DNA of 63,421 nucleotides, counting the filler, from Pelomyxa schiedti (Eukaryota; Protista; Evosea): NCBI GenBank assembly GCA_020536535.1. It is 22 parts of 22 records of this genome, joined end to end, with 100 filler letters (N's around TTAATTAATTAA, not from the genome) between each part and the next. Parts side by side here need not be neighbours in the genome. Positions count along the whole stretch, not along the records: positions 25,277 to 35,479 come from JAHLWZ010000084.1; 21 more parts are not named here. One strand, 5' to 3'. Shown here one piece after another: positions 16,079 to 47,538 of this stretch (positions within the stretch are counted from its first letter, which is position 1; the number at the start of each line of letters is the position of its first letter). The notes beneath the pieces are model-generated. The model was not told the DNA's origin. It saw only the letters and a program-made list of their open reading frames with translations, and ran no database searches. The position numbers were made by a program, and so were the translations under genes.

Positions 16079-16145
16079 TGTGATTTTCTTGATAAAGATT
16101 CAAGGCAGTCCTCAGAGGAGTTCTTTGAGTTCGTCGTTGTTGCAC

Positions 16146-17600
16146 ATGAAAAGGGGCCCCGCCAACCAACGGGTTGTTGCGACCAACGGCCGCGCCGCCA
16201 ACCGAAGCTTGGGCGCTCGCGAACCCACAATTTCGGTTGGGATCCACCTTTCCGCCAACGCCCAGATGCTCGCGCTGGCGACATCGTGGCACCCACGATG
16301 CGGCGCATCCAGCCCCGCACGCCTCCTCCAGTCCCAACCCGCCGTTCTTCGTCAATTATGGGATTCCTGCGTCTCTTCGTTTGTTCCTCCTCCCCCGCAC
16401 ACATCAACACCAACACCAACAACAGCGCAATCACACCACCCAACAACGGCACCAACAGCAACAAAATCAACACAACCATCACAGTCACAGTGCTGTTGTT
16501 GCTGTTGGCCAACAACGTCATTGATTGGTGTGGTGGTGTCAGCTGAGCCACAGGGTGGTCTCACTGACAAGAGGCTCATCACGTTTGGTGTGTCAAGGGA
16601 ACTCGTCGGTGCGTTGGCTGGGTCTGTGTCTGTCAGCCCTGCGTGGTGTCAGCCAACCTCTTATTGGCGCGACCCGCCGTGCTGTGTTTACGCTGCTGGG
16701 AGTGGCATCCACGTGCTGGAGAAGAATTACTCGCTCAACCAGGAGTTCGCTGAATTCAGCATGGTGTTGCCCTCGGCAATCGAAGAGAACGGAAGAACAC
16801 CAGCCAACAAGGCGATGTGGCGGTGGGGCGGGGAGACATCACAGACAGCAGATGGAATGGTGAACAGCAAGTGGTGGGTGGTGTATTGTGACATGAGTCG
16901 CTGGCTGCCCTCAGAGGTGTGCATCTCCAGGATTTCTGGAAGCCATGGTGGCGAAAGGCTGGGCCCAAGTTCTGGTGGCACCGTGTGCAGATTGAAGGTT
17001 CCCTTTTTGATGGGGTTCTTCCTCAGCAAGTTCGACCCAGATGAAGCTGCAATGGTGACTGCAGACCACGCGAATGGGAGCCTAGTTATCTCTGTGATTG
17101 ATGTTGAAGCTACTTTCTCGACTGGTGCCGCAAAGCTTCTGAGTGAAACCAAGTGGTTGATTTATGATTACAACTGCTTTGTGCTCTCAGGCATGATCTT
17201 TCACCACCAAACAACAGGGTCAAGGAGCTTCGTCATTGTGACACATTCAACCATGCCGGATTTCGAAGAGTCAGAGGCATTCATTGTGGAAGAGAGCACC
17301 AGTTGTCAGAGGAAAATCGATGGTTACTTCAGAGAAGTTTCACAACTGAATGAGTCTCTGTTTTGTGTGTCACTTTCAGCAGAATATCAACTGTGGGAAG
17401 CGAGAGTGGCCAGGGAACAACCACTGAGGAGGGTCTCAATTTGCCATCATGATGTTGTCACTGCCGAGTGTGGTCTGTTGTTCCACAGGACACAAGGCAA
17501 TTCTGTTGTAAATGTGACTCATGCTGCAACAGGAATGCTCATCCTCTCTTTCACTGTTCCTCCTAAGTCCGCCACTCACATTTCTGGCTTTCTTCTTTGA
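16146..17600 (+). CDS. HPRCG-box family protein
   Basis: SANAQMLALATSWHPRCGASSPARLL…LRQLWD…FGVSRELVG…VNSKWWV…SQLNESLFCVS…THAATGMLILSF. Start taken at ATG 16146; the upstream part of the track ORF is antisense to the neighbouring gene. Confidence 0.85.
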   Translation: MKRGPANQRVVATNGRAANRSLGAREPTISVGIHLSANAQMLALATSWHPRCGASSPARLLQSQPAVLRQLWDSCVSSFVPPPPHTSTPTPTTAQSHHPTTAPTATKSTQPSQSQCCCCCWPTTSLIGVVVSAEPQGGLTDKRLITFGVSRELVGALAGSVSVSPAWCQPTSYWRDPPCCVYAAGSGIHVLEKNYSLNQEFAEFSMVLPSAIEENGRTPANKAMWRWGGETSQTADGMVNSKWWVVYCDMSRWLPSEVCISRISGSHGGERLGPSSGGTVCRLKVPFLMGFFLSKFDPDEAAMVTADHANGSLVISVIDVEATFSTGAAKLLSETKWLIYDYNCFVLSGMIFHHQTTGSRSFVIVTHSTMPDFEESEAFIVEESTSCQRKIDGYFREVSQLNESLFCVSLSAEYQLWEARVAREQPLRRVSICHHDVVTAECGLLFHRTQGNSVVNVTHAATGMLILSFTVPPKSATHISGFLL

Positions 17601-18127
17601 TTGAATTCATAAGTTTACACTGTTTTCTAAAATGGTTCCTCATGTGAAGGAGGGAGAAAGTGAGTCAGTGAACCAAGAGTAGTGTGAAAGTGATGACTTC
17701 CAGAAAAGGGAATCACAGAGTTGGCACTGAGCGACCCACAGATGTCGGAATGCAATGACACGTGATGCTTTGATCTCGTTACGAACCCCCATTCACAGTA
17801 GCGGGTTACACAGCTGAGGAGAGTGCCTGAGCAAAAAAAAAAGAGGGAGGAGTTTAAAGACCACACAATAGAGAAACCAGTAACAGAGGTGTCACCGACA
17901 GAGAATACAAGTGCCCCCGGGTCTCATCAGTGCGGCCTTCAACTCAAGGTACTTGAGTTTTTAGAGCTGNNNNNNNNNNNNNNNNNNNNNNNNNNNNNNN
18001 NNNNNNNNNNNNNTTAATTAATTAANNNNNNNNNNNNNNNNNNNNNNNNNNNNNNNNNNNNNNNNNNNNACAGCAGGGTGGAACCCACACAGCAACAAAA
18101 GCAGGTTTGTTTTTTCAATCTCAGCAC

Positions 18128-19318
18128 TCACAACAAGAACGAGAAAAGGTGACCAATTTGGTCCACTGCCAGTGAAGTTTCCAATGTGATAACTGTGGAA
18201 CCAGAATCATAATCAGTGACAACGATACAGTGATCATCCCTCATGTGAAACAGGAGCCCAGAATGCGCAATTGCCATCTGGCAGTGTTCAACGTGGTCCA
18301 CAATCCTCAGGGAACGTGAGGGACTGTTGCAATCCCAAATCTCCACTCTGTTTGGGCAGGACACACAAAAAAGCCTCTCGTTCAACTGTGACAGAGCAAC
18401 ACTGCCTTCAATGAAGTTGTAAACTGTTGTGTTGGTTGCATGTGAGCCTGAAGTGCACTCCCTGAACTGGAGGAGGATGAATTTTGAGCTGTAAACCATC
18501 ACCACGAAGGAACGCTCCTTGGATTCCGTCTGAAGAACAAGAACCTTTGGAATCGAGCATCTTTCGTGCATGGTTCTAGGAGGGAGTGTTATGGAAACAG
18601 CCTGTGTGCACTGAGAGCGAGAGTCGAACCACATCCGTGCAACGTTGAACACGCACAGCTCAATAACACGGGGAAGAATGGAAACTAACACAGCTTCGTC
18701 GTGGCGGCTCTGGTTCATGAATACATTCACCACATTCACCATTTCCGGCATTGGAACTCCAACTTGTGTCATGGTACCAAATCTGTTTTTCTCCAGCAAC
18801 AGGTTCCCAAGCACAACCCTCGTGTTCCTTGGATCATGTAAAACGAGCCACCTGTGGTTCATTGCACAGGGCCCCTCCACTATACTCTCTGGCCCGCAGC
18901 TGACTCCGCGTGGCGGGTTCTTGTTCCCAGAGGAGGAGGCACTGAACGTCAGCCTTCTCAGAACGCAGAGCGACTCCCTTGAGTAGTAGGAGTTTCTCTC
19001 GACTACATTCAAGTGATTGGCACCAATCATTTCGCAGGCGAACGAGTAGCTCGGCCTCTGGAGCGGTGGCGTCGGCACGACCCCGTGTGTGATTGGCGAC
19101 ACCCCAAACGTGAACAGGGTCGAGTGGTCGCGCGTTGGCACGGCCTCGACGCTGAAGTGCATTGTGGGACACACCGAGACCCACTCCCACACGAGCCGGG
19201 CGACCGAGGACGCAGACACGCCGTCCCACAATGGCAAAATGCGAGCGAGGGGCGTGTCGCCGCCGCACCTCGGGTGCCCCATCGTGCACAGTGCAACAAA
19301 CTGCGAGACGAGGTCCAT
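18128..19318 (-). CDS. HPRCG-box family protein, triplicated subfamily copy A
   Basis: Intronless 396-aa ORF: SQFVALCTMGHPRCGGDTPLARILP…SQLNERLFCVS…WDCN. Confidence 0.9.
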   Translation of the reverse strand: MDLVSQFVALCTMGHPRCGGDTPLARILPLWDGVSASSVARLVWEWVSVCPTMHFSVEAVPTRDHSTLFTFGVSPITHGVVPTPPLQRPSYSFACEMIGANHLNVVERNSYYSRESLCVLRRLTFSASSSGNKNPPRGVSCGPESIVEGPCAMNHRWLVLHDPRNTRVVLGNLLLEKNRFGTMTQVGVPMPEMVNVVNVFMNQSRHDEAVLVSILPRVIELCVFNVARMWFDSRSQCTQAVSITLPPRTMHERCSIPKVLVLQTESKERSFVVMVYSSKFILLQFRECTSGSHATNTTVYNFIEGSVALSQLNERLFCVSCPNRVEIWDCNSPSRSLRIVDHVEHCQMAIAHSGLLFHMRDDHCIVVTDYDSGSTVITLETSLAVDQIGHLFSFLL

Positions 19319-19365
19319 GGTTATTGGTGAAAGTTAAACTCCCACCCACATCAACTTATGCGAAA

Positions 19366-20751
19366 ATGGACAACGCTTGGTGCATCAGCGGCACAGGGTA
19401 TTGTCGGTGCGACACAGTGATCGATACACACGCACAGTTTCTGGCGCTTATGGGATCGAGCCACCCGCGGTGCGGCCTCGGGTGCGCCCCGTCCCTCGTG
19501 GCGCTATCGCGCGACGAGCCGTTCATGAGGTCCCTCTGGCTATCGTGGGCCGTCGACGGCGCCGTGTCCGCGGTGCTCATGACGGCGCTGTCACGCTCGA
19601 GCGAACAAGCCCACGTGGAGGTGCCGCTGCGGTTCTCGCCGCTCCTCGGCAGCGTCTCGATTATGGGTCGCGGGGTCAGGCTGTGGCCGCCCCACGACTC
19701 GTGGCGCTGGGTGGGCTCCACCCACTGCCTCGTTGCCCCACCCAGAGTTATGGGAATGGATCCTGCCCCATACCATTTCAAGAACATGACCCATGAGACT
19801 AACAGCAGTAGTAGTAGTGGTGCAAGTAGTGGGTGTGATGAAGTTCCAGGGTGCCTGTATCCATTCACAAATGGGAAGTGGCTGGTGTGGCCCACGGGGG
19901 ACAGAAGCGAGGCGGGCAGAACCGTGGCTGTCGCCGATTTGCAGAGCCTGATGCGGCATGAGGGTACAGTGCCAGTTGTTACTGAGTATTCGGCTGAGCA
20001 TGGCGCTGATATACGGGCAGGTGCATTTTCTGGTGCAGATGAGCTTGTGATTGCTGATCTCGTACCAAGTGGGCAGTGGACTGGCTCCACTATGTTCAGG
20101 GTGTTCGATCTGGCCAAATCCACCTGTGATGGGGAGTCACGTACTCTGCATCTCGTTGAATCCTTTGAGGTGCCTCTGAAGCTCTGTATAGTATCTCCCA
20201 TTTTGTTGATGAAGAAAATGGATGGCACCAGAGTCATCATTGCAGCGATGAGAAAGGAGGCATCACCATTCGAAAAAGATGAAATCCACTGGATTCGTGG
20301 GAATGGGGATTCAGTTGCAATCACGAGTGGTTGCATCAACCTGCACAAGGCAACAGAGTCGTTGTTCTGTATCATCAAGAAAGACACACATGAAGTCTGG
20401 GATGTGAACAACCCAAACGATCCCTCTGCAATTGGTGTGTGCAAAGCAGTCATCAAGAGTCCTGTGAACACTGCTCCAGCAGTAGCCACTGTCTCTGTCT
20501 CAGACAACAAACCCAAAACGGTGTTTGATATCTTCGAAATGGCGCTACCTCCAGTTCCAGTGGGAGGGTACATCCGTGGCTGGTTTCAGTGCTGTGGAAC
20601 ACTGATTTTCGTGCTTGTAAAAGCCAAAGTGAGTGTGGTGGACATGCTCACTGGTTATGTTCTTCTCAACGTTTTCCCACAAGAAGGCTGGGAATTTGAG
20701 CCACTGCATCGCTGGAGTTGTGTCCCATTGCCTGTATCCTCCTCTTTGTGA
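19366..20751 (+). CDS. HPRCG-box family protein
   Basis: AQFLALMGSSHPRCGLGCAPSLVAL…SLWLSW…FSPLLG…NGKWLV…ESLFCI…WDVNNP…VVDMLTGYVLLNV. Confidence 0.88.
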   Translation: MDNAWCISGTGYCRCDTVIDTHAQFLALMGSSHPRCGLGCAPSLVALSRDEPFMRSLWLSWAVDGAVSAVLMTALSRSSEQAHVEVPLRFSPLLGSVSIMGRGVRLWPPHDSWRWVGSTHCLVAPPRVMGMDPAPYHFKNMTHETNSSSSSGASSGCDEVPGCLYPFTNGKWLVWPTGDRSEAGRTVAVADLQSLMRHEGTVPVVTEYSAEHGADIRAGAFSGADELVIADLVPSGQWTGSTMFRVFDLAKSTCDGESRTLHLVESFEVPLKLCIVSPILLMKKMDGTRVIIAAMRKEASPFEKDEIHWIRGNGDSVAITSGCINLHKATESLFCIIKKDTHEVWDVNNPNDPSAIGVCKAVIKSPVNTAPAVATVSVSDNKPKTVFDIFEMALPPVPVGGYIRGWFQCCGTLIFVLVKAKVSVVDMLTGYVLLNVFPQEGWEFEPLHRWSCVPLPVSSSL

Positions 20752-20801
20752 AAAATTGTTGTACCACGGAGTTAGTGTGGTTGTACTAGGCACTGTGAAA
20801 C

Positions 20802-21080
20802 TGTTAGCTTCTGTGGGAAGAGAATAAAGCCCCACAGAGTGAGAGTGTAAAGGTTCTCTTGCTTGTTCTCGTGCTTGGGTTGCACGTGTTCAAAGGATAA
20901 TTAATTTGGTGCGGTTAGGTGCGGTTAGCTTCAAAGCCACGCTGTTGTCCAATTCTCAGTCAAGATTGCCTCAGAATCAATCACCACTGCAGTCCGCATT
21001 AGTGCGTTCTGTGTCTCATAAGATCGTCACTGCCTTATTCCAGTAATTCCATCAAGCCCGCATTGGATCTCGAGAGTCGA
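20802..21080. mobile_element. LTR-like terminal repeat fragment (TGTTAG end, hairpin)
   Basis: Near-identical to 50906-51203 apart from an indel after the hairpin. Confidence 0.8.
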
Positions 21081-21214
21081 CTCAGAGTTTCAGCTCAATT
21101 TTTTTTGCAGTTTGAAAACAACAGAGTGGCATGCTTGATTATGATAACAAAAAAAGGAGGGACATTTCCACAAAGAACGCTCCAACCAACATCACCACGT
21201 TATTCAGTGAGCAC

Positions 21215-22456
21215 TCACAACATGAACGAGAAAAGGCGACCAATTCTTTCCTCTGCAGCAAAGTGTGAAAGGTACAATGTGATAACAGTGGAACCAGAAT
21301 CATAATCAGTGACAACGATACAGTGATCATCCCTCATGTGGAACAGGAACCCACCATGTGCAATTGCCATCTTACAGGGGAAAATGTGCTCCACAATCCT
21401 CAGGGAACGCGAGGGACTGTTGCAATCCCAAATCTCCACTCTGTGTGGGCAGGACACACAGAAAAGCCTCTCGTTCAACTGTGACAGAGCAACACTGCCT
21501 TCAATGAAGTTGTAAATGGTTGTGTTGGTTGCATGTGAGCCTGAAGTGCACTCCCTGAACTGGAGGAGGATGAATTTTGAGTCATAAACCATCACAACGA
21601 AGGTCCGCTCCTTGGATTCGGTCTGAAGAACAAGAACCTTTGGAATGGAGCATGTTTTGGAGATGGCAGTAGTTGGTGCTGTTCTTGAAAGAGTCTGGGG
21701 GCACTGAAGGTCAAACCAGGTCATTGCAACGTTGAATATACACAGCTCAACAGCATCAGGCAGCATGGAAGCCAGCACAGCTTCGTCGTGGCAGCTCTGG
21801 TTCATGAATACATTCACCACATTCACCCTTTCCGGCATGCGCATTTCAAGTGGAGTTGTGCCACCCAACCCGCTTGGCTCCAGCAACAGGTTGCCGATCA
21901 CAACCTTCATGTTCCTTGTGTCATGCAAAACAAGCCACCTGTGGTTCATGGCACTGTGCCCCCCCCATGATTGGCTCCGCAACGCTGTGACATGGCCACT
22001 GATTCCACGTCGCGGTGGCTCCCTGTTCTCAGAGGAGGAGGCACTGAACGGCAGCCTCCTCAGAACCCGGAATGACTCCAAGTTCCCGTCTCTCTCGACG
22101 ACATTCAAGTGATTGGCACCAACTAGTTCCCAAGCGACGGAGGAACTCGGCCTCTGGAGTGGTGGTGTATGCACGACCCCGTGTGTGATTGGCGACACCC
22201 CAAACGTGAACAGCGTCGAGCGGTTGTACATCCGCACGGCCTCGACGCTGAAGTGCATTGTGGGACACACCGAGGCCCACTCCCAGACCAGCCGGGCGAC
22301 CGACGAGGCCGACACGCCGTCCCACAATGGCAAAACGCGAGCGAGGGGCGTGTCGCGGCCGCACCTCGAGTGTCCCATCGTGCACAGTGCAACAAACTGC
22401 AAAACAAAATCAATCGACGCAATCGTGTTGTGCCAACCGCCACGATTGTTATCCAT
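21215..22456 (-). CDS. HPRCG-box family protein, triplicated subfamily copy B
   Basis: LQFVALCTMGHSRCGRDTPLARVLP; closely similar to 18128-19318 and 22637-23839. Confidence 0.9.
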   Translation of the reverse strand: MDNNRGGWHNTIASIDFVLQFVALCTMGHSRCGRDTPLARVLPLWDGVSASSVARLVWEWASVCPTMHFSVEAVRMYNRSTLFTFGVSPITHGVVHTPPLQRPSSSVAWELVGANHLNVVERDGNLESFRVLRRLPFSASSSENREPPRRGISGHVTALRSQSWGGHSAMNHRWLVLHDTRNMKVVIGNLLLEPSGLGGTTPLEMRMPERVNVVNVFMNQSCHDEAVLASMLPDAVELCIFNVAMTWFDLQCPQTLSRTAPTTAISKTCSIPKVLVLQTESKERTFVVMVYDSKFILLQFRECTSGSHATNTTIYNFIEGSVALSQLNERLFCVSCPHRVEIWDCNSPSRSLRIVEHIFPCKMAIAHGGFLFHMRDDHCIVVTDYDSGSTVITLYLSHFAAEERIGRLFSFML

Positions 22457-22636
22457 CGTGTAAATCAAAAGGTGAAACCGTTTTTTTTCTTCCCAAGAGA
22501 AATCAACTGGGCGGTACAACCTGGCTGCTGAAGAAGGCATAATGCACAGTACAAACTGGGTGAGTTATAGTGCAAACAACAGCAGGGTGGAACCCACACA
22601 GCAACAAAAGCAGGTTTGTTTTTTCAATCTCAGCAC

Positions 22637-23839
22637 TCACAACAAGAACGAGAAAAGGTGACCAATTTGGTCCACTGCCAGTGAAGTTTCCAATGTGATC
22701 ACTGTGGAACCAGAATCGTAATCAGTGACAACGATGCAGTGATCATCCCTCATGTGAAACAGGAGTCCAGAATGCGCAATTGCCATCTGGCAGTGTTCAA
22801 CGTGGTCCACAATCCTCAGGGAACGCGAGGGACTGTTGCAATCCCAAATCTCCACTCTGTGTGGGCAGGAGACACAGAAAAGCCTCTTGTTCAACTGTGA
22901 CAGAGCAACACTGCCTTCAATGAAGTTGTAAACGGTTGTGTTGATTTCATGTGAGCCTGAAGTGCACTCCCTGAACTGGAGGAGGATGAATTTTGAGTCA
23001 TAAACCATCACAACGAAGGAACGCTCCTTGGATTCGGTCTGAAGAACAAGAACCTTTGGAATCGAGCAGGTTTTGGAGATGGTTCCAGGAGGTAGCCCGG
23101 TTCTCGAAGCAACCTGTGTGCACTGAAGGTCGAACCAGGTCATTGCAACGTTGAATATACACAGCTCAACAGCATCAGGCAGCATGGACGCCAACACAGC
23201 TTCGTCGTGGCGACTCTGGTTCATGAATACATTCACCACGTTCACCCTTTCTGGCATTGGAATTTCAAGGGGAGTTGTGGCACCCAAACCACTTGGCTCC
23301 AGCAACAGGTTCCCAATCACAACCCTTGTGTTCCTGGGATCATGCAAAACAAGCCACCTGTGGTTCATGGCACTGTACTCCCCTGATTGGGTCCACAACG
23401 AGGTTTCATATCCACAGTCACTGATCCCACGTGGCGGCTTCTTCTTGTTCTCAGCGGAATTGAACATCATCCTCCTCATGACGTGGAATGACCAGCATGT
23501 ATAAAACGCCCTCCTCTCTACCACATTCAAGTGATTGGCACCAATCATTTCACAAGCAGACGAGGAACTCGGCCTCTGAAGTGGTGGCGTCGGCACGACC
23601 CCGTGTGTGATTGGCGACACCCCAAACGTGAACAACTCCGAGTGTTTGTGCCTCGGCGCGGCCTCGACGCTGAAGTGCATTGTGGGACACCCCGAGACCC
23701 ACTCCCACACGAGCCGGGCGACCGAGGACGCAGACACGCCGTCCCACAATGGCAAAACGCGAGCGAGGGGTGTGTCGTGGCCGCACCTCGGGTGCCCCAT
23801 CGTGCACAGTGCAACAAACTGCGAAACAAGATTGACCAT
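22637..23839 (-). CDS. HPRCG-box family protein, triplicated subfamily copy C
   Basis: SQFVALCTMGHPRCGHDTPLARVLP; C-terminal peptide and 3' flank match copy A. Confidence 0.9.
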   Translation of the reverse strand: MVNLVSQFVALCTMGHPRCGHDTPLARVLPLWDGVSASSVARLVWEWVSGCPTMHFSVEAAPRHKHSELFTFGVSPITHGVVPTPPLQRPSSSSACEMIGANHLNVVERRAFYTCWSFHVMRRMMFNSAENKKKPPRGISDCGYETSLWTQSGEYSAMNHRWLVLHDPRNTRVVIGNLLLEPSGLGATTPLEIPMPERVNVVNVFMNQSRHDEAVLASMLPDAVELCIFNVAMTWFDLQCTQVASRTGLPPGTISKTCSIPKVLVLQTESKERSFVVMVYDSKFILLQFRECTSGSHEINTTVYNFIEGSVALSQLNKRLFCVSCPHRVEIWDCNSPSRSLRIVDHVEHCQMAIAHSGLLFHMRDDHCIVVTDYDSGSTVITLETSLAVDQIGHLFSFLL

Positions 23840-25276: not shown

Positions 25277-27156
25277 GCGCCACTCTCTCTGTCAGTGCCT
25301 TGATTGAGACCAGTGTCCCACCACTCCCATGAACTTCAGCCGGCTGGAGGTTGTATTGCACTGATGCAAAATCATTGTCATCAAGGATCTCCTTGAGTGT
25401 GTGGATGTTGATGTGGTGGGTGATGTTCTTTGCTGAGAGGCATGGTGTCATTGCACCTGATGACACAAGATGTGTGCACTCACAGAGTGTTTCTTTCAGC
25501 TTCTTGTCTGCTGCAATCATGCCCACAATGTCGCTGGACTTGGCGATTTCGTGTGCTCTCGTGATTGTTCTTTTGTGTGTTGACATGCACACCTCGAGGC
25601 ACTCTTTGTGTTCTTTCACATTTGATTCTGTGGTTTTGGTTTGTTGATTTGTCTGAAAAGCAGAAAGAGAGGCAACATACTGATAAACAATGAAAGCAAA
25701 GTGCAGTCTGAGACCACTTTGCTGACCTGCTGTTTCATGGAACACAAGATTGCGTTGGTCTCTGTCTCAACATCGGCTACAATTGACTGAAGAGTTTTGT
25801 CAGACTCCAAAATGGAAGCCTCACATTTTTTAATTGCTTCACGTTCGAGTTCAACTGTTTCCTCAAGCTTGGAAATAGAACCTAGCACACAGTAGAAAGG
25901 TTGACCCAAACTCCACACTGGTTTTTGAATTACACACTTAAAATGGATTCACGGACTTGAGTGCCAATTTCATCAAGTGGGACACACTTGTGAGTGGTAT
26001 GCAAAGAACTGACGTGGCACAAGTAACACATTGGTGTATGGTCTTCCAAGCAGAACAGATCAAGATCCTTCTTTGGGTGTTTGGGGNNNNNNNNNNNNNN
26101 NNNNNNNNNNNNNNNNNNNNNNNNNNNNNNNNNNNNNNNNNNNNNNNNNNNNNNNNNNNNNNNNNNNNNNNNNNNNNNNNNNNNNNAATTTCATCAAGTG
26201 GGACACACTTGTGAGTGGTATGCAAAGAACTGACGTGGCACAAGTAACACATTGGTGTATGGTCTTCCAAGCAGAACAGATCAAGATCCTTCTTTGGGTG
26301 TTTGGGGCATTTGTGTTCCTCAGTCAAAACGGGTGATGTGGTGATTGGTTCCCCCTGAGTGTGATGAATAATTGTATTCTTCACAATTAATGAACCTTGT
26401 GAGACTTGAGTCCTGGTGCTTTGTGACGGATGTGGAAGCATGATTCACAGAACAACATCCCTTTGCACCGCAGACAAGTCATCGTTGCTTTCTTGGCAAC
26501 TGAGTTCTCATCCATGCAATACCCAAGCATGCACAATCCTTCCTCTGGCTCCTGACAAAAAGAAAGTAAACGGCAACAAGGGAGACACACACCTCCTCTT
26601 TTTCTTTCATCACCTGGAGCAGGTAATCACGAGTGGTGACATCAGGGATGAGCATTGACACATCACTCACCCTCAATGATTTTGCACCACACCCCAAAAC
26701 TGGGCATTGAACACTCACACCAGTATTAAGTGCTTCACATGTATTATCGCTTGACTTGTGGGTGGTGGTCCCTGTTGTGCCTCAGCTATTGCTTTGTTTT
26801 TTTTTACATAAATATAAATATATATGCATATGTGTTCACGCCGTCTGACAAGCGTAGAATATGAAGATGGAACCTGGTTGAGAGCTGCCACTCGCGGTTG
26901 TGGACAGAGACACCGAGGACACGGACAGCGGGGCGCGCTCACGCAACATGGTGAGTGTTGCCACTGACGCGATGTGGAGGTAGCACCCACGGCACACGAC
27001 GTGCCCACACGACGACGACGACGAGGGTGCGGAGGAGGCAGCTGATTTGGATGCGGGGAACAACACCGGATTGGTTATGGGACACCCCAGCCCGCCGCAC
27101 ACACTGCACTGTGGGACAGGGGGAGGAGGGACAGCGCGCGGCTCCGATGTAATCAT
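25277..27156 (-). CDS. TRIM-like RING/B-box/B-box/coiled-coil protein 1 (multi-exon, 3'-truncated)
   Basis: RING CSVC…CGHVVCRGC…CPVLGC; B-box 1 CMLGYC…CLRCKGMLFCESCFHIRH; B-box 2 CPKHPKKDLDLFCLEDHTPMCYLC…H..HKC; then coiled coil. Confidence 0.8.
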
Positions 27157-27546
27157 ATGAGTAAATAATTCAATTTTCTGGTATAGATTTGGCAAAGTTC
27201 ACCTGTAAAAAAAAATTCGAAAATTCATCAGTTTTAATTTTTTTTTGGTCCTTTTCTCATGGGGGACGGAAGGGTTCAGGAAGATCGTTTGGGCGTCTTC
27301 ATAAATCACCTGCACCCGATGAGACCGGCACATTCTCACCAAACACAACAACGGCGGAGACTCCAGTTAGGAAGTGTGCCTCAATGAATGAAAAAAACAT
27401 TCCACAAAAAGGAAACAAAAATTGACACCAGATTGGCGTTCTGTTTCCCCCCCGTTGTAACCAGAAAATTGAATTATTTACTCATCAGTTTGATCTTTGA
27501 TTATGATTGGGTTGGTTCGTTTTAGGTGAAGCAGTGTGGTGTCACG

Positions 27547-29902
27547 TCACGAAGACAAAGGAGCCTCCAGGACCAGGAAGTCATGCACGTGGCTCGTATC
27601 CCAGCACCTTGTGTATCCGTACTCCTCTGGGTTCCCAAAAGAACAAGGCTGTTTCCTCACGGCTGTGAAACCACCATCACACACTCCATTACCATTGGGA
27701 GTCAAGATTGGCACCTCAAACCCACCAAACGAACTCCTGGATGGCACAGTTGGGACCCCATGGGTAATTACCCACTCGTGGCCTTTGTACCAGGCCTCCT
27801 GCTTGCCCAGCATCTCACACGTGGATATCAGCAGGGTTGCATCCTCTGTGCTTCTGGGGTGGAACCACTGCAGACCAAGTGTAAGGGGCAGATCCTTGTA
27901 CTCTGCTATTGGCTTGCTGCTATCACTCAGAATTATCACCACTGTGCGGCCACAGCTTGTGTACTGCTTGAATCCAAGTGGGGCTACTTGCTGCATCTGA
28001 AGTGTATGAAGCTGTTGCTTGAGGGAATCGTTCTCTGTTGTCAACTGGGTTTGCTTTGTTTCCAGCTGTGCTTTCATTTCTTTGAAGACGATCCTTTCTT
28101 TTTCAAGGGTGTCTTCAAGTTGCACCACTCTATCCTTCAGTGCCTTCATTGTAACACATGTTCCACCACTCCTTTCAGCCAGCTGAAGGTTGTATTGCAC
28201 TGATGCAAAGTCATTGTCATCAAGTACCTCCTTGAGTGCGTGGGTGTTGATGTGGTGGTGATGTTCTTTGCTGAGAAGCATGGTGTCATTGCACCTGATG
28301 ACACAAGATGTGTGCACTCACAGAGTATTTCCTTCAGCTTCTTTTCTGCTGCAATCAGGCTCACAACGTCGCTGGACTTGGCGATTTCGTGTGCTCTCGT
28401 GATTATTCTTTGGTGTGTTGACATGCACACCTCGAGGCACTCTTTGTGTTCTTTCACATGTGCTTCTGTTTGTTTGGTTTGAGTGGTGAGTCAAAGCTGA
28501 AGGGAGAATAGAAAAGAGACACCAATCAAAGAGGAAATCATTGTGCAATCTGCAACCACTTCACTGGTCTTCTGTTTCATGGAATGCAAGATCGAGTTGG
28601 TCTCTGTCTCAACATTGGAGGCAATTGACTGAAGAGTTTTTTCAGACTCCAAAATGGAAGCCTCACATTTTTTAATTGCATCACGTTCAAGTGCCACCAC
28701 CTCCTCAAGTTTGGGTGTCACACCTGCATTCATTTTGAGTCAAACTTCCCGCATTTTTGTTTGGGCATAAAATACACACTCAAAATGGACTCGCGGATCT
28801 GAGGGCCAATTTCATCAAGTGGGACACACTTGTGAGTGGAGTGAGCCGAACTGAATGCACACAGTGAACATATTGGATCCCTTTCCTCCAAGCAGAACAG
28901 ATCAAGATCCTTCTTTGGGTGTTTGGGGCATTTGTGTTCCTCAGTCAAAACGGGTGATGTGGTGATTGGTTCCCCCTGAGTGTGATGAATAATTGTATTC
29001 TTCACAATTAATGAACCTTGTGAGACTTTATTCCAGGTGCTTTGTGATGGATGTGGAAGCACGACTCACAGAACAACATCCCTTTGCACCGCAGACAAGT
29101 CATCGTTGCTTTCTTGGCAACTGAGTTCTCATCCATGCAATACCCAAGCATGCACAATCCCTCCTCTGGCTCCTAGAGGACAAAAAGGTAGTAAGTGACT
29201 GGCTTATTTACTGAACATGCGTGACACACACCTCCTCTTTTTCTTTCATCACCTGGAGCAGGTGATCACGAGTTGTGACATCAGGGATGAGCATTGACAC
29301 ATCACTCACCCTCAATGATGTCACCCCACACCCCAAAACTGGGCATTTAACACTCACACCTGCAGCATTCAGTACCTCACATGTATTGCTTGATCTGTGG
29401 GTGGTAGTCCCTGTTGCAGGTTACTTTTTATTTCATTTATTAATAAAAAGTCATAAGCCCATTGCCTCTTGTTTAAAAAAGGCTATTTAACAAGAGCTGA
29501 CACTTGTCTGTAACTACAGTAATATTTGAAGAAAAAACCTGGCAGAGATAATGGTGTTGATGATACAGATGCCATCTCGCCAGAATGTTGTTGGTCTTCA
29601 TTGTTACAATTATGAGTACTGCCTCCTGACAGAGAGACTGAGGGCATGCACAGTGGGGCACGCTCATGCAACATCATTAGTGTGGCCACCGATGCGATGT
29701 GGCGGTAGCACCCACGGCACACAACGTGCCCACACGACGACGACGAAGACGACGGTGTGGAGGAGGAGGAGGAGGAGGAGGCAGCTGATTTGGACGCGGG
29801 GAACAACACTGGATCGGTTATGGGACACCCCAGCCCGCCGCACACACTGCACTGTGGCAAAGGAGGTACAGCGCCCTGTTGTTGTGGTGACGGAGATGCC
29901 AT
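27547..29902 (-). CDS. TRIM-like RING/B-box/B-box/coiled-coil protein 2 with unknown C-terminal domain
   Basis: Same motifs as paralogue 1; C-terminal ~140 aa (GFKQYTSCGRTVVIILSD…CWDTSHVHDFLVLEAP) not recognised. Confidence 0.82.
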
Positions 29903-29987
29903 TATTTGTTTTACAGTTTGATCAGGGTATTAGGGGAAAAAGGGATGCATACACCCACACCGACGCGATACAGAAGCGTATTAAGTT

Positions 29988-30090
29988 CACCGGAGTGCAA
30001 GTCAAAGGAGAAAAACAGAATTTGTTAGTGAGTAAGGCAGCGTGAAGCTGCCCGATTTTGCCGGGAGTTGTTGGGCGGTTGGCGCGGGGG
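29988..30090 (-). repeat. Dispersed ~110 bp element, copy 2
   Basis: Reverse-complement match to 2721-2838; ends 85 bp upstream of the TRIM-like 2 ATG. Confidence 0.85.
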
Positions 30091-31889
30091 CAGCGCGTTG
30101 AATCGGGTCTCGCGGCGGCTGCGCGGCCTTGAACATAAGTGGGTTTGATTGTTCAGTGGCTTGTGACTTTTGATTATCGTCAACCACCAAAAAAATCGAT
30201 GAGGGGTGGCCATGCCAGCAGTGGACAAGCAGTACTCTCCCATTTGCTTTTTGTTGTCTTCTTCACCACAACTGTTCTATTTGCTTGTTTATTATTTTAT
30301 GTATCGGAGTGGTGTTTTTGATTTTATTATTTAAATAATTATAATGTATGAACTTCTTTATAAATAATTTTAATTACCAGTTCTTTTTTCCCCATTCCAC
30401 ATTACACCAGTATTTATGGCAGCTTTCCACCAGTATGTGGCTTCTTCTTTCTTCGTTTTCTCACGTAGGATAATTTAGGTGCCGGACGTGGTGTCTGTAA
30501 TTCCAGCTGGCTAGGTAACTTCCTTCTGTATTTTATTATACTGGCACGGTGGTATGTAGTTTTTTTTTTTATAGCTGCGCCAGATGGCAACCGCCAATGT
30601 ACATCCCTCCCCCCCTCGTCATCCCACTCAAAGTACTAGGTACCGGACTGGGCACCAGGCCGAATTCCTCACACTCACTCTCACCATCCTCACACCTCTA
30701 TGTACAAGCCTGAAGTCGAAAATCGACTTCAGGCAAAAAAAAAAAGTTTTCTGCCCTTAAGTCCTTGGATACAAAATCGTGCCACGTTATTTTAAATCCA
30801 CATTTTGGAGAGAAGTGGGTGTTGTGGGTACGCATGAGAGTGAAAGAGTAAGAAGGGAAATTTGGGCCTTGTTGTGCACCCGTCACAGTAAAGTGTGGTC
30901 GTTGGAAAGCGGAAAAGCGGGAGAGTGGGTTAGGGAAGTTGGGGTTGGTCAGTCCGGTACTACAACTGTTCAGCAATGACAAAAAAAGGAGAAGGATATG
31001 CGTCAGTGGTTGTCATGTACAGGAGCGTGATTAATGGTTTGGCCATTTCTAAGAGTCGAATTCTTGCCATGAACACTGACGAGCCAATGCTGTGTAGCTC
31101 TGCTGGCGTTGGGTCATGAAAATATCGAATAACAGTTTCCCTCATCACCTCGGTCTGCTGATTCTCCACCTTGGTTTTCAGGGTCTCCTTCACTCCTTGC
31201 TTGCATTGCCACTTTTCTGTGCAGCTTTGTACTTACCCCAAAGATACATACAGGTTCATTTTCTCCTTCTCAGTCCTTTTGCTCTTCTCCCTCTTGTGTT
31301 TGCTTGAAATTTCACTATCCAACGACAACCTAGCTTGCAGGACATGGGCATGGCCTGCAAGATCAGCTGTTCAGCTCTCTGCATGTTCCACTCCACACAC
31401 AAGATGCCCTTACAGTGCCTGCATTTCTGAAACTTTGCGAGTATGCTTATCAGCACAAGCCAATCACTCTGTTTGTGCTGGATGTTGTCTGGGACTGGCA
31501 TGGTTACTTCTCTCCCTTCTTACAGGGGTCTCAATGGCAATGCCTTGAGGACTGCTTTGGATTTTTGATCTCCATTGGAGTTCCCTCAGGTTCCACCCAC
31601 GAATCTGTAGTGGTGCAGTCAAGAAGATTTAACTCACGAGAACAATGGTCAGAATACAGTGCTGATTTGTTTCCTCAGGGAATTCCAACAGGGGTGCCCA
31701 ACACTGTGCCTGCTGATTTTTCAGTTTTCAAGTCCACTGAAATTGCATCCATTTCGAAAGCACTTCCTCCTTCACTTGGTGGAACTCATTACTCTCTACA
31801 CCTTCAACTGTGTTCCCTGCATTTGGTTCAGGCTCTTCAAAAGTGTGTATTTCTGCTTTATACTGTTCTGCCTCTTCATTATTACAATC

Positions 31890-31956
31890 TGTTAGCTTCT
31901 GTGGGCTTGAGAATAAGCCCCACAGAGTAAGAAAATGAGTGAAGTGAAGAATAAAG
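31890..31956. mobile_element. LTR-like terminus fragment (TGTTAG + hairpin)
   Basis: TGTTAGCTTCTGTGGG…CCCACAGAG, shared with 20802, 39135 and 50906. Confidence 0.7.
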
Positions 31957-32330
31957 GGCTTGGTCTCTAGGGCCAGGGCAAAACACTTGGTGCCTCGGGG
32001 GCACGAGGCTGCAGAAGGGCTTGCCACCTGCAGCATCTTTCCCCACATGCACTCTGACACCTGGCGGCATAAATGCACGGTCCGTGGCATCTACTGGCAT
32101 CAGCAGTAACCAACAAAGCTGTGGCGACATGGTTTTTGATAGGGCAGAAAGGGCTTGGTCTCTAGGGCCAGGGCGAAACACTTGGTGCCTCGGGGGCACG
32201 AGGCTGCAGAAGGGCTTGCCACCTGCAGCATCTTTCCCCGCATGCACTCTCACTTCGTTCGCACATTTTTGGGTGGTTTCCCCTTTATTTCTATGTGGAA
32301 ACTGCATGGCTGTGGTATCACTTGCCGAAG
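31953..32330 (-). mobile_element. Decayed RT/RNase H relic with internal 103-bp direct duplication
   Basis: Reverse complement of ~50530-50810 (encodes VTADAS). 31953-32055 is duplicated at 32148-32250. Confidence 0.55.
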
Positions 32331-32794
32331 ATGACATGATTGCTCCAACTCAGTGAATTCATGGAAGTACACAGTGCTGAGGTTAAGTGGGTGCAGGTGG
32401 AAGTAAAGCCTGACATTGCACTCTGTTTGTCAGCCCTTCTGGCATCCAGGGTCCTGGAGTGGGGTTTTTCATAAAAAGGGACTGTACCTTGGTAATAGAT
32501 TTAGTAGGCAGGTCAGCCTACACCTAAATAATATCTGGTGATGACAGGCTTTCATCTCAGCAGCCACACCAATGGCTGGTGGAGATTCTGAAAGTCAGAG
32601 GGCCCTAATGCCAACACTCCCATGTAAATCAGTGTGAATGCGGAAAAGGACCTAGAGATGTGCATCTGTGTTTTTAATTGTTTTTAATTTTTTATGTTGA
32701 GGTAGCACCAGTCTCAGTTTTGTTTTGTTTTGTTTTGTTTTGTTCCTTTTTGACTTGGCTTTTTGGCTAAAAAGGGTGATAATGGGGATTGTTG

Positions 32795-35073
32795 CTATGA
32801 ATTGCATGATAAACCAATGAACGCCACGTATTGCAGCACAAATCCACATCCAGCATTGCTGCCGTTGTTCTCCAGCAGGAGCAACTTCCAGAACCTGAAG
32901 TGTTGCAAACAATCTGCAATTCTGTATTCACCCACAGCACCACTCACATCGGCAGCAGCGTGGTTGAGGATGCCAGTCCATGGGCCGGTTTCTGTGTCAC
33001 CACCAAGCAGTGAAAATGTTTTCACAATCTGAGTGCCAGATGCGCGGTTCTTGAGCTGGAAAGCTGTAACTCTTTTAGGAGACAGCACCTGGTAAACAAT
33101 GAACACTTCTCCTGTTTTGTTTTGTTGTTTGGGATGTATGTGTGGTGTTTGATTGTTAGTTGATTGATTCTGCAGGAAAGGATAGTTCTAAAAGGACCTG
33201 AGAAAGGCACAAGAGGGGAAGCAAATACTGTGGCATCATCCATGAGAGAATTCTCTGGGAAGTAAGTCTCTGGGTTATTTGGTGTGCTGACATAGGGCCC
33301 ACAGCTCATGGCAACTTTGGCCTCCAACTTGGTGGGGATGTGTGCTGCAAGATCACTCAAGTGAGCGATCTGTTGTTGCTTTTCTTCCAACTGTGCTCTC
33401 AGTTCACTGTTCAGCACAGATTCCTTTGCCAGGCTCTCTTCGAGTTGCACAACTCTGCCTTTCAGTGCTTTGATGGAGAATTGAGGCGCAGCTTGTGGAT
33501 CTGTGGTGATGCTGTTGTGGTACTGCACCAATGCAAAGTCATCATCATCGAGGACCTCCTTGAGTGCGTGGGTGTTGATGTGGTGCACAATGTTCTTTGC
33601 TGAGAAGCATGGTGTCATTGCTCCTGATGACACAAGCTGTGTGCACTCACAAAGGGTTTCCTTCAACTTCTTGTCTGCTGCGATCAAGCTCACAACGTCA
33701 CTGGACTTGGCGATTTCGTGTGCTCTCGTGATTGTTCTTTGGTGTGTTGACATGCACACCTCGAGGCACTCTTTGTGTTCTTTCACCTTTGCCTCTATTG
33801 TGGATGAGAGTCTGAAAAGGAATGGAGGAGCAGGGGACAAATTACCAATCAAGGAGGAAAGTAAATTGCACGTTGAAACCAGATCACTGGTCTTGTGCTT
33901 CATTGACTGGCAAATTGAGTCCATTTCAGACTGAGCCGTAGATGAAATTGAAAGGAGTGACTTCATTGCATCCAAAATGGAGGCCTCACAGCCTTTGATT
34001 GCCTCACTTTCAAGTGCAACTGTTTCCTCAAGCTTGGAAACCGAACCTGGCAGCACAACATTACTTTGAATTCTGTAAGGCAGAGTGTGGCACACCCAAG
34101 ATGGATTCACGAATCTGGGAGCCAATATCATCAAGTGGGACACACTTGTGAGTGGCATGTGAAGAAGTGATGTGGCACAGATAACACATTGGTTCGGTCT
34201 CCTCCAAACAGACCAAATCAAGGTCCTTGGTGGGATGCCTGGGGCATTTATGATACGCGGTTGCAAGCGCGGAAGCAGAGATTGGGTCACCCTCGTGCAG
34301 GTTGGTAACTTCTCATAAAAAAGTAGTTAGTAAGTTTGAACCTTGTGAGACTTGATTCCAGGTGCCTTGTGATGGATTTGAAAACACGATTCACAGAACA
34401 GCATTCCTTTGCACTGCAAGCAATTCAATGTGGCCCTCTTCGCTACTGAGTTTTCGTCCATGCAATAACCGAGCATGCACAGTCCTTCCTGACACCTCAA
34501 AGTGTCAGCATACAATTTATATTTTTCCACACACCTCCTCTTTTTCTTTCATCACCTGGAGCATGCAATCACGAGTGGTGGCATCAGGGATGAGCATTGA
34601 CACATCACTCACCCTCAATGATGTTGCACCACACCCCGCCACTGGGCATTCAACACTCACACAGTACCCAGGAGGTGACGCGGACTGTTCCCCAACTACA
34701 TCAGATGAATTAAAATCAATATAGTATTAAGAGTATATTTTAAATTAACACCGATCAGGTGGTCCTCCACGCACCCACCTTGGTCGCTGTTGTCACACCA
34801 GGACAGGCCTGACTTTGACATTCTCACTGATGACACAGAGTGCCTGGACATATTTTTGAGCTGTGCCACACACGCTATGTGGCGGTAGCACCCTCGGCAC
34901 ATGATGTGCCCGCACGACGACGTTGTTGTTGATGATGTGAAAGAGGAGGAGGAAGTGGCAACGTCTCCGAGAGATGACGACGACGTTGAATGTGGGATGT
35001 CATCATGATCGGAAGGAAACAACACGGGGTCGGAAATGGGACACCCACACACGTTGCATGATGGGGTTGTCAT
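32795..35073 (-). CDS. TRIM-like RING/B-box/B-box/coiled-coil protein 3 with discoidin (F5/8 type C)-like C-terminal domain
   Basis: RING CNVC…CGHIMCRGC…CPVAGC; two B-boxes; coiled coil. C-terminus YFPENSLMDD…FAS…IVYQVLSPKRVTAFQL…VKTFSLLG…W…FRFWKL…VAFIG fits the F5/8C/galactose-binding-like pattern. Confidence 0.82.
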
Positions 35074-35135
35074 TCACTGAATTGATAGGGGAAAAAAAAA
35101 CAAAGTAGAGAAGATTCTAATCAACAATTCGGTTC

Positions 35136-35479
35136 ATGTCGGCCGGTGACCCCAAGAGGGAAGACTGGGTTCGATTGATACGGTGCAACTACGCAAGCGA
35201 TCAATTCATAGCTCTCGCCGTCGCTGCGTGGGCCTCACAACCCAAAACCACCAACACGGGTGCCGCTCAAACACCCCTCATGCGCGATGCTGAACCACCA
35301 TCACAGTCAGGAGGCGTACGACAGCCACCATCGCCACCATCGTCACCATCATCATCATCACCACCACCAGCAGCAGCAGCGGCGAGTATGCTTCCCATGT
35401 ACTTGATGGAATACATCGGGAGGGAGTGGGTGACGCCGACGGCTGTGTACGTGTGCAGGGTGTCACCAATTTATGCGAG
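35136..35479 (+). CDS. HPRCG-box family protein (split-box subtype), N-terminus only
   Basis: YASDQFIALAVAAW…(Ser/Pro insert)…MLPMYLMEYIGREWV. Confidence 0.72.
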
Positions 35480-35579: not shown

Positions 35580-36339
35580 ACTCAGAAGAAGGGCCGTTGT
35601 CGGCGATGAGCTGTGTGTGGTCATCATGATGGTGCTCAGGTTCATTTGCACTCTGAGGCCTGTCTTGTTCAGCATCGAGGACGCCGGCGTGTTCCACTCC
35701 TATGCCACCTGCCAAAAGATACTTGGCGGCTACTCCGGGGCCTCTCACCTGTTGTATGCCAAGGTTATTGAACAGTTGCGTGGTGCGCCTTCTTCTGTTG
35801 ATAAAGAGACTACATTCTGTGACAGGAATTCCTGTGTGGCAGCACTTGGGCATTTCCTCGAGGGGTTCCTGCTCCAGACAGGCACACCAACATCCCACAC
35901 AGAGGCGGTGAGTCACTATCAACAGGCCTGTTCACTGTTCAATCCCTGCACAGGCAAGGATACAGTCACCAAGGCACTTACATATTACTGCCTCGGACTG
36001 TGCTACGACAACAGAGAGGGTGTTGAGGCCGATACGGACAGAGCGATTAGGTACTGGAAGCTGTCAGTTGAGAATGGACACCCGTATGCCATGAACAACT
36101 TGGCATGGTACTATCAACAGGGAATACAGGGCACCAAGCAGGAGGCATTCCGGCTGTACTGCATGTCAGCCGATTGTGGGAACACTGTTGCAATCCACAA
36201 CCTTGGGCATGTTTACAGCAAAGATCTGTGTGGTGTGAGCCATGACATGCGTGAGTCTGTGAGGTGGCACAAGTTGGCTGCTTCCCACAAGTATTCCCCT
36301 TCAATTGTGGTTCTGCGTAAGCTCAACATCAACTTGTGA
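35580..36339 (+). CDS. Sel1-like repeat protein (5'-truncated)
   Basis: LGLCYDNREGVEADTDRAIRYWKLSVENGHPYAMNNLAWYY…AIHNLGHVY…ESVRWHKLAA. Confidence 0.88.
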
Positions 36340-40272: not shown

Positions 40273-41500
40273 TCAATCACATAAAGGGGAGTGGAAGGGA
40301 ACTGCCTTGGCGTATATTGGAAGGAGAGCTTTGTCCATCCTTTTTTGGTTCATTGTGAAAATGAGTGTGCCTGTTATTGCATCAATGAATTGGTGGTACA
40401 TCTGAACCCTTGGACTACAGAAGTTAGCTGCTGCCGGATCTTTTGTTTTAAAGAGTGTGACTCCTCTTTGGCCCGGTTGCACTGAGTGCATGGAGAGAGC
40501 GCTTGAAACGATAATTCCACAGCCACCAGCAACCATTGATCCTGGAACAAAGTGGTGAACTTGACCCGCATGGGCACTTGGAAAGCAGGATGAATCCTCA
40601 GCCATTAGTGAGAATGTTGGTGAAGGAGCAGAGGAAAGCAACTGCTGGATCTGATAAACTGAAGCAACAGAGCAATCTTCGTTTGTCACACATAAGTGCA
40701 ACTCATCAACTGCCCACCAATCAAATTTAAGTTCCAATTTATGCCTAAGAAATGGGCAGCTCTCAGGCAGCGTGATAATTTCCCCTGTGTTCAGAACCAA
40801 CACACTCAGTCCAGATCCGTAATCACGTGACATGAAGTAATATGTTCCGTCAGGCCTGTTGATGAGCGGCTGCGTGGCCCACTCTGCCCTGACTTCCCTC
40901 TCTGTAATGTAATGGCACTCCCCAATAACAATGGGAATGGGGTTGTCACTTCCAGTGTTGACGTTGATGTGCAACACCCGCATGAGGTTTTCATCTGCCT
41001 CCTGGAAAAGGATTGCCTCGACAACATCAGACTCAAAGTCATATTCAGAGGAACCAAAGAACCTGAGCGAAAACACAGAGTCAATCCACGGATACTTGGT
41101 CACTCTGCAGCAAGGTCCCACTCGTGCGTTTTCAACCTTGTAGACAAACAACCCAGTCGCGGCGGTGCTAGTGTCAGTTCCAGCAACAACAACCCACTTC
41201 TTGTTGCAGCATGCCTTCAATCCCCTTGGATTCATCACCGAAATAGGAGTGCTGATGTATTCCTCCAGTTCTTTTTGTCACTTCAAACACTCCGAGCTCG
41301 TCCACAGAACGATCTTTCACCATGAACCTGTTTCCACCAAGCCACCCAAAGCAATTCTTGTCCCACCACGGCACCTTCACAGGCTCATGGACTATGCCCA
41401 GAGTGGGACTCACACTGAAGAACAGGTACTCAGGCGACTCGTCGTCCCAGCTCATTTCGCTGGGCTCGCCGGCAAATCCGACCAAGACCCTCCTCTCGGG
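40273..41500 (-). CDS. HPRCG-box family protein (5'-truncated; frame change near 41200-41240)
   Basis: RERRVLV…FFSVSPTLGIV then CNKKWVVV…LRFFGSSEYDFESDVVE…AVDELHLC…IDAITGTLIF; parallels 14122-16078. Confidence 0.78.
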
Positions 41501-46239: not shown

Positions 46240-46339
46240 NNNNNNNNNNNNNNNNNNNNNNNNNNNNNNNNNNNNNNNNNNNNTTAATTAATTAANNNNN
46301 NNNNNNNNNNNNNNNNNNNNNNNNNNNNNNNNNNNNNNN

Positions 46340-47446: not shown

Positions 47447-47538
47447 AGAAGAAAAAAAACTCACTGCCTGGACACAGCAGCATTGCCAGGTATTTTTTTT
47501 TTTTTGCTTTCCCACCTATTCCAATAAAAAAAGTGATC

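Follow-up and report, generated by a model that had tools for sequence, protein, structure and literature searches.

A TRIM-like gene family with exchanged C-terminal domains in the archamoeba Pelomyxa schiedti

Does the tripartite-motif (TRIM) architecture, in which a RING, B-boxes and a coiled coil (RBCC) are followed by a variable C-terminal domain, form a modular gene family outside animals? This question is raised by a group of paralogous genes in the anaerobic amoeba Pelomyxa schiedti. We analyzed a window of 63,421 nucleotides from assembly GCA_020536535.1, which consists of contig pieces chained by spacers; positions 25277-35479 (JAHLWZ010000084.1) represent one piece of 10.2 kb with one internal 100-N gap. 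Three paralogues lie on the minus strand of this piece, at 25277-27156 (copy 1), 27547-29902 (copy 2) and 32795-35073 (copy 3). Their DNA is 73–88% identical over 0.55–1.3 kb, which bears out the three similar same-strand genes described in a first-pass annotation of this DNA. The family is real and recently expanded: its members share a RING-B-box1-B-box2-coiled-coil chassis, and their C-terminal domains, here called tips, have been exchanged. The earlier proposal of a modular RBCC family outside animals with exchanged tips is supported by a spliced copy 3, by mosaic sequence and by unrelated tips.

Exon limits were drawn from comparison of the copies and from GT-AG ends, and intron lengths across the copies are 41–128 nt. 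The family was counted on public protein models. Four sequence runs cover the stretch, all of them as assembled contigs from a single study; two are recorded as RNA and derive from a different sample than the other two, which look genomic. Summed read depth was not taken as copy number.

Copy 3 is intact. Its seven exons encode 637 amino acids uninterrupted by a stop, identical to the public model P0001, with the RING at 34631-35058, B-box1 at 34345-34479, B-box2 at 34148-34246, a long helix at 33706-34135, a hairpin and linker at 33517-33696, a second coil at 33343-33474 and the tip at 32813-33333, all on the minus strand; an intron at 33112-33197 splits the tip. In an RNA contig covering 32932-33960, introns 5 and 6 are both spliced out and only 1 of 892 nt is mismatched; coil and tip of copy 3 are therefore on one transcript. 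The intron between B-box1 and B-box2 (34292-34341) ends in GAG instead of the usual YAG, and the public model uses the same site. A fourth copy, on another contig piece (48743-50326, plus strand), matches copy 3 with 98% identity from B-box1 through to the stop codon, its 5′ part being cut by the contig edge; it is an allele or a recent duplicate of copy 3. The codon differences between the two, 14 silent and 8 changed, fit purifying selection.

All three copies follow the same order of RING ligands, B-box1, B-box2 and long helix, and a second short coiled coil is present between main coil and tip. The shared RING, two B-boxes and coil of the first-pass annotation thus stand in their order, although the RING score lies under the Pfam cut-off and the tip of copy 1 is missing at the contig edge. 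The RING of copy 3 has eight zinc ligands (C6, C9, C54, H56, C59, C62, C115 and C120), the last pair being C-x4-C. These ligands are separated by two Ser-rich inserts (44 and 52 residues), and this is why the RING remains below the cut-off (best E 0.004, window fragments). The complete RING pattern together with the domain order was found in 5 of 11 public models, the remaining models being partial. The B-boxes, with B-box1 preceding B-box2, are above their Pfam cut-offs (PF22586, E 6e-9; PF00643, E 1.6e-10), and the tandem matches the MID1 B-boxes with an E of 0.002. The best PDB matches by sequence were TRIM39, TRIM3 (residues 174-338), TRIM41 and the tandem B-boxes of MID1. No membrane-spanning segment was seen in any of the five models scanned.

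The coil follows B-box2 directly, as a continuous helix (residues 254-363) with a hydrophobic period of 3.6. The full-length model of copy 3 is poor, with a predicted local distance difference test score (pLDDT) of 45.5; in it the first helix is followed by a hairpin and a linker and then by another helix (441-484), and fold searches with it probed the coil alone. TRIM5alpha was the top match in Foldseek (E 0.14) and was tied among generic coils in the VIA fold search. When residues 208-430 were modelled as a pair of chains, the score was 0.66, while the best of three controls reached 0.00; the pLDDT was 85 and at least 94% of contacts agreed between runs. The contacts are antiparallel (residue 276 with 351, 297 with 326). 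Among solved homodimers, 21 of 30 microbial and 17 of 29 eukaryotic ones attained the mark for a dimer, but only 1 of 7 that had no older solved relative; no single chain attained it (0 of 23 and 0 of 30, respectively). The coil is predicted to form an antiparallel dimer; the pass may reflect memory of solved TRIM coils, and the score is a measure of likeness to those coils, not of binding.

Could the RING and B-box exons belong to separate genes? Neither this objection nor that of homologous tips was borne out by the tests made. Spliced RNA contigs link B-box2 to the coil and the coil to the tip, and pieces bounded by exons 3 and 4 are consistent with introns 2 and 3; the joint from RING to B-box1 was not among the contigs listed.

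Next, we consider the tips. That of copy 3 was earlier described as discoidin/F5-8C-like, and a beta-sandwich of this type is likely, a reading by eye being in agreement. The only Pfam matches of this tip type, PF00754 (two of four members, best E 0.009) and PF22633 (E 0.03), lie under the cut-off, and hhalign gave a probability of 1.9%, which none of the 60 shuffles reached. Searches with this tip drew a blank in the PDB by profile, in viral or prokaryotic contigs, in plasmids, and in PHROGs (E <0.08).

The tip of copy 2 (27550-27984, minus strand) had been described as an unrecognised domain of about 140 residues. It does differ from the copy 3 tip: the two are unalignable, with an hhalign probability of 0.1%, so that the two tips do not appear as homologous folds. 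It is no longer unrecognised, being now predicted to be C-type-lectin-like, and it is out of frame in the assembly. Its model, for which 44 sequences were used, reached a pLDDT of 94.9 and a predicted template modelling score of 0.90. All 50 rows at Z ≥5 in VIA are of the C-type-lectin fold by title (best Z 7.6, root-mean-square deviation 3.3, 116 residues aligned), and Foldseek gave the same fold with a probability of 0.89 and an E of 0.042. The single scores are middling, and it is the uniform match list that speaks for the predicted fold. The earlier suspicion that one tip might be a lectin is strengthened, as a lectin-type fold is now predicted for the copy 2 tip too.

The copy 2 tip belongs to a family without a name that also occurs in bacterial secreted proteins. 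A full HMMER scan found 57 relatives at E ≤0.001, in which the domain is mostly C-terminal; many bear Cys-rich repeats and signal-like starts. Organism-named relatives outside Pelomyxa are all bacterial; of 18 genome loci, 10 bear the label Myxococcota or that of a subgroup. The three top matches are Pelomyxa proteins (P0012, P0013 and P0014), and the closest relative comes from a second Pelomyxa data set. P0013, from P. schiedti, carries a RING, one B-box, a coil and the copy 2-type tip in frame, and is only 27–33% identical to B-box2 and coil of the family described here. In P0014, likewise from P. schiedti, the tip follows a TRAF zinc finger and a coil, at the position usually taken in TRAF-like proteins by a MATH domain, and P0059 shows, by eye, an apparent B-box end and a coil ahead of it. 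A cysteine-poor version of the tip, in several cases behind a coiled coil, was seen in P0025, P0027, P0039, P0045, P0048, P0051, P0052, P0054, P0059 and P0068; these proteins probably come from other protists. There was no useful match to the copy 2 tip in the PDB by sequence, NCBIfam, phage records or JGI metagenome contigs, and no match to Pfam Lectin_C. A word-indexed search of longer proteins returned only copy 2 itself and missed P0013 and P0014, both of which the full HMMER scan found.

In an unrooted tree of 44 tip rows, all Pelomyxa rows fall, together with rows of skewed composition, in a branch of 15 (support 98/87). Calcium-dependent C-type lectins possess an outer disulfide and EPN/QPD plus WND motifs. 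The first cysteine of this disulfide is kept in all 29 rows outside the Pelomyxa branch and absent from 14 of the 15 inside it (one falls short of the position); in the copy 2 tip both outer cysteines are absent. Such a loss is as expected for a shift into the cytosol. Transfer from bacteria followed by cytosolic adaptation would be the simplest reading of this tree. By eye, the copy 2 tip has NP and CWD at likely equivalent positions.

In copy 2 the first-pass annotation overlooked a one-base deletion ahead of the tip. The six exons of this copy (29902-29539, 29410-29232, 29172-29017, 28975-28780, 28723-28523 and 28465-27547, minus strand) encode the RING (29328-29851), B-box1 (29020-29154), B-box2 (28832-28930) and the long coil (28376-28822). 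At 28256-28259 the gene has one base fewer (near 28257) than copies 1, 3 and 4, and the shifted frame runs into a stop at 28148. The public model of copy 2 bypasses the site through a 122-nt predicted intron. This intron is unlikely, since two paralogue RNA contigs read through the stretch; it is also disfavoured because it would delete conserved residues of the predicted dimer interface. Indirect evidence suggests that the missing base is probably genuine: depth subtraction in run X2 leaves a contig at a depth of 40.3 with no listed difference, although this run may itself be the source of the assembly. Where contigs are listed with an indel at this position, all five have the additional base and resemble other paralogues. 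At present, copy 2 is probably an allele that is decaying or has lost its tip.

RNA contigs skip introns 1, 4 and 5 of copy 2 or of a near-identical paralogue. One of them removes the RING-internal intron; another skips introns 4 and 5, linking B-box2 to the coil, and is in frame at the deletion site. A 6-nt deletion and downstream letters suggest that the latter contig belongs to the paralogue P0003. In each genomic-looking run, one unbroken contig holds family-type linker, second coil and copy 2 tip together (27487-28255).

Copy 1 (public model P0009, minus strand) comprises a RING (26689-27108), B-box1 (26399-26533), B-box2 (26211-26309) and a coiled coil. The contig edge cuts the gene where the second coil begins, and therefore no tip is readable. 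The 100-N scaffold gap (26087-26186) lies inside this copy; positions 25966-26086 exactly repeat 26187-26307, and this 121-bp duplicated overlap is an assembly artefact.

How did different tips come to sit on one chassis? Two homologue searches returned 9 and 11 proteins, every one named Pelomyxa schiedti, and some of the public models are auto-named 'tripartite motif-containing'. The C-termini of the 11 models are of several types: discoidin-like in five (two of which break off inside it), the copy 2 type in one, Ser- or Lys-rich tails in two and none visible in three. Copy 2 shares 116 of 120 residues with the discoidin-tipped P0003 (39 of 41 in B-box2 and 77 of 79 in the coil), and their tips are unrelated, which indicates recombination. 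B-box1 of copy 2 is nearer to copy 1 (44 of 46 residues). In a midpoint-rooted tree of B-box2 plus coil (8 rows), copy 2 pairs with P0003 (99/98) inside a group with low-complexity tails (96/94) and away from two other discoidin-tipped genes; a tree of B-box1 alone gave no resolved grouping. As the B-box2 plus coil tree mixes tip types, the sequences suggest that tips were replaced more than once or that chassis segments were converted. A putative conversion tract, which copies 1 and 2 likely share, spans 26355-26551 in copy 1 and 28976-29172 in copy 2 (minus strand): exon 3 is identical at 149 of 156 positions and the 41-nt intron 3 at all 41, against only 50–61% likeness in the other four introns.

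Copies 2 and 3 cease to be homologous at 28051 and 33376, respectively, inside one exon, the last that they share. Exon shuffling at an intron was therefore rejected, and the swap made no use of an intron. Recombination within this last coil exon is the likely source of the copy 2 tip, and the discoidin-like tip is probably the older one of the family.

What might such proteins do? By analogy, the Pelomyxa family probably consists of cytosolic ubiquitin ligases whose lectin-fold tips would recognise repetitive sugar-bearing surfaces, a reading to which we assign a probability of roughly 0.55; we infer both the ligase activity and the sugar binding. As in animal TRIMs, an antiparallel dimer would set the RINGs at opposite ends and pair the tips on the short second coil. 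The RINGs would be held apart until the paired tips bind a repetitive surface; dimers would then cluster via B-box2 contacts, the RINGs would switch on, and the target would be marked for autophagy or the proteasome. The likeliest targets would be glycans exposed to the cytosol, on the surfaces of bacteria (prey or endosymbionts) or on the lumenal face of broken vacuoles. Prokaryotes housed in the cytosol and vacuoles of P. schiedti are described in part of PMC10579272.

Several observations weigh against this lectin-ligase reading. The RING has long inserts, and its last cysteine is not followed by the arginine that is usual there. Protein or lipid ligands are common among C-type-lectin-like and discoidin-like domains, and two of the 11 models end in low-complexity tails instead of lectin folds. 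For the copy 2 tip, every lectin-fold Z is below 8, in the range that the tool calls common, the best Foldseek E is only 0.042, and the canonical calcium and sugar motifs are, by eye, not present as such. The discoidin call is weak. Besides the low Pfam and hhalign values, controlled profile and pairwise tests were negative: with the copy 3 tip profile, 8 bacterial F5/8C domains came out no higher than 1072 background frames, and none of the 16 pairwise z-scores reached 2. In addition, the pLDDT of the full-length model is about 35 in this tip. Finally, the spliced frame of copy 2 comprises 471 residues and ends ahead of the second coil and tip, and among the read differences listed in its last-exon frame 8 of 9 are residue-changing, which fits decay.

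The most serious alternative, though we consider it rather unlikely, accepts a modular ligase family and takes the tips to bind proteins or lipids, as housekeeping substrate receptors. The discoidin-like DOC/APC10 domain serves other ligases, and the C-type-lectin-like domains of natural killer (NK) receptors bind proteins. Many top fold matches of the copy 2 tip are indeed protein- or lipid-binding (LOX-1, Ly49, NKG2D), the tip lacks the canonical sugar-binding motifs, and the tips of copies 3 and 4 show no excess of changed codons (3 changed, 5 silent). On the other hand, two unrelated folds, each of a lectin type, have been recruited to one chassis, and the lectin-like tip has been recruited onto three different ligase-type chassis. 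Tandem duplication, conversion and gene decay would also suit recognition repertoires more than housekeeping genes.

It is improbable that tip swapping is neutral churn, with functional discoidin-tipped genes and copy 2 as a dead chimera. The frameshift fits this explanation, as do the repeats and the transposon-like insert around the genes, the single copy 2-type tip among the 11 models, and the residue-changing share of the listed copy 2 differences, which exceeds the 8 of 22 that separate copy 3 from copy 4 (Fisher p 0.015). Yet the frame past the frameshift is open for 256 codons, the same tip is in frame in P0013, a member of a second RBCC subfamily, and an RNA-library contig covers the copy 2 tip (27563-28045), albeit in an intron-less part that could be DNA. 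An artefact, either animal contamination or false fusions of misassembled near-identical paralogues, is hardly credible: the assembly is single-cell and gapped, the paralogues are identical right around the frameshift site and no listed contig spans the whole gene, but all 11 homologues are Pelomyxa models, the introns are short and spliced, the unbroken genomic-looking contigs and the copy 3 RNA contig each join chassis and tip, and the nearest relative of the tip comes from a second Pelomyxa data set. The example in the window, copy 2, is weakened by the frameshift, while the wider claim is strengthened by the tip fold and by its reuse on other ligase-type chassis.

How does the family relate to known systems? 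Passages of PMC2533329 call the tripartite motif exclusive to metazoans, and the first-pass annotation likewise regarded the RBCC as mainly animal. It is not confined to animals, given that TRIM37-type genes are reported for many protists in part of PMC3503706. According to that part, TRIMs of other eukaryotes are only the MATH-bearing, single-B-box Subfamily A, and sections of PMC5758549 and PMC11552500 give Dictyostelium one TRIM37-like gene. The Pelomyxa genes share with TRIM37 and Subfamily A (DdTRIM) the occurrence of TRIM-type genes outside animals. However, Subfamily A has one B-box, usually a MATH domain, and a single copy in Dictyostelium, whereas the Pelomyxa family has two B-boxes and at least 11 models, in none of which a MATH domain was matched.

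The closest layout is that of animal two-B-box TRIMs (the MID1/TRIM18 and TRIM3 class, and the TRIM5alpha coil), with the same order of RING, B-box1, B-box2 and coil, a coil length of about 110 residues, the predicted antiparallel dimer, a variable C-terminal domain and tandem clusters. In contrast to these, the Pelomyxa family has an amoebozoan host, the Ser-rich inserts and C-x4-C pair in the RING, a second coil before the tip, and discoidin-like or C-type-lectin-like tips, which are absent from the legend of the human TRIM table in PMC2533329. The B1-B2-antiparallel-coil likeness to TRIM3, MID1 and TRIM5 fits shared ancestry at least as well as the independent system first proposed. Lectin reading of cytosol-exposed glycans that leads to ubiquitination and autophagy is described, in part of PMC6389600, for TRIM16 with galectin-3 and for F-box proteins (Fbs1-3, plant F-box/Nictaba). 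In those systems a separate protein or a subunit of an SCF complex acts as the lectin, whereas in Pelomyxa the RING chain itself carries a lectin-type fold and would perform both roles in a single polypeptide. Within the C-type lectin-like superfamily, the fold of the copy 2 tip resembles CEL-IV, PLA2R CTLD7 and langerin (Z 7.0–7.6 over 100–116 residues in the top seven rows), although the tip is less than 15% identical to such lectins and its nearest sequence relatives are bacterial secreted Cys-rich proteins. Neither the family nor its architecture turned up in searches of the open-access literature, which covered main texts. PMC8887013 supplied assembly and intron facts, and the word 'ubiquitin' is absent from its main text.

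Several other features surround the genes. A miniature inverted-repeat transposable element (MITE)-like insert at 27157-27485, with 26-bp perfect terminal inverted repeats, abuts the start codon of copy 1. It is probably polymorphic, since both genomic-looking runs include a contig that skips it (joint 27159 to 27487); without it, about 60 bp separate the copy 2 stop from the copy 1 start. The stretch between copies 2 and 3 (29907-32700) is multi-copy DNA, with a summed contig depth of up to about 3500 versus about 40–80 in unique parts, and contains, besides a direct repeat of 106 bp, a fragment at 31334-31930 that resembles DUF7869 (E 9e-6); it probably represents transposon remains. Elsewhere in the window, three tandem intron-less paralogues of about 400–450 aa (18070-23830; 83–86% DNA identity) include one with a weak KIB1-4 beta-propeller match (E 1.8e-5), and unassigned frames of similar appearance occur at 14122-15369, 15699-17600, 19156-20751, 40273-41277 and 46340-48642. 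MORN-repeat genes lie on three contig pieces, at 4906-6264 (Pfam E 7e-26) and, by likeness, at 8642-9124 and 45357-46287. The next contig piece holds a Sel1-repeat protein (35581-36339, E 2e-19). Tandem repeats with steps of about 108 and 216 bp at 62155-63421 likely mark a leucine-rich-repeat gene on the minus strand, judging from the DNA repeat pattern only.

Taken together, a multi-copy two-B-box family with recombined tips in an archamoeba questions the notion, found in the passages of PMC2533329 and PMC3503706 considered here, that modular TRIMs with variable tips are, MATH-bearing relatives of TRIM37 aside, restricted to animals. A fold is also assigned to a bacterial and protist domain family that has no name and lies outside Pfam coverage, and the genes provide testable candidates for one-chain glycan-sensing ligases. 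More tentatively, and with more doubt than belief, they may belong to a diversifying repertoire of single-chain sugar-sensing ligases of TRIM and TRAF type, built by swapping lectin-fold tips, one of which came from bacteria, that police symbionts, prey and damaged vacuoles. If that is true, the two-B-box TRIM chassis with variable tips would either predate animals or have arisen twice.

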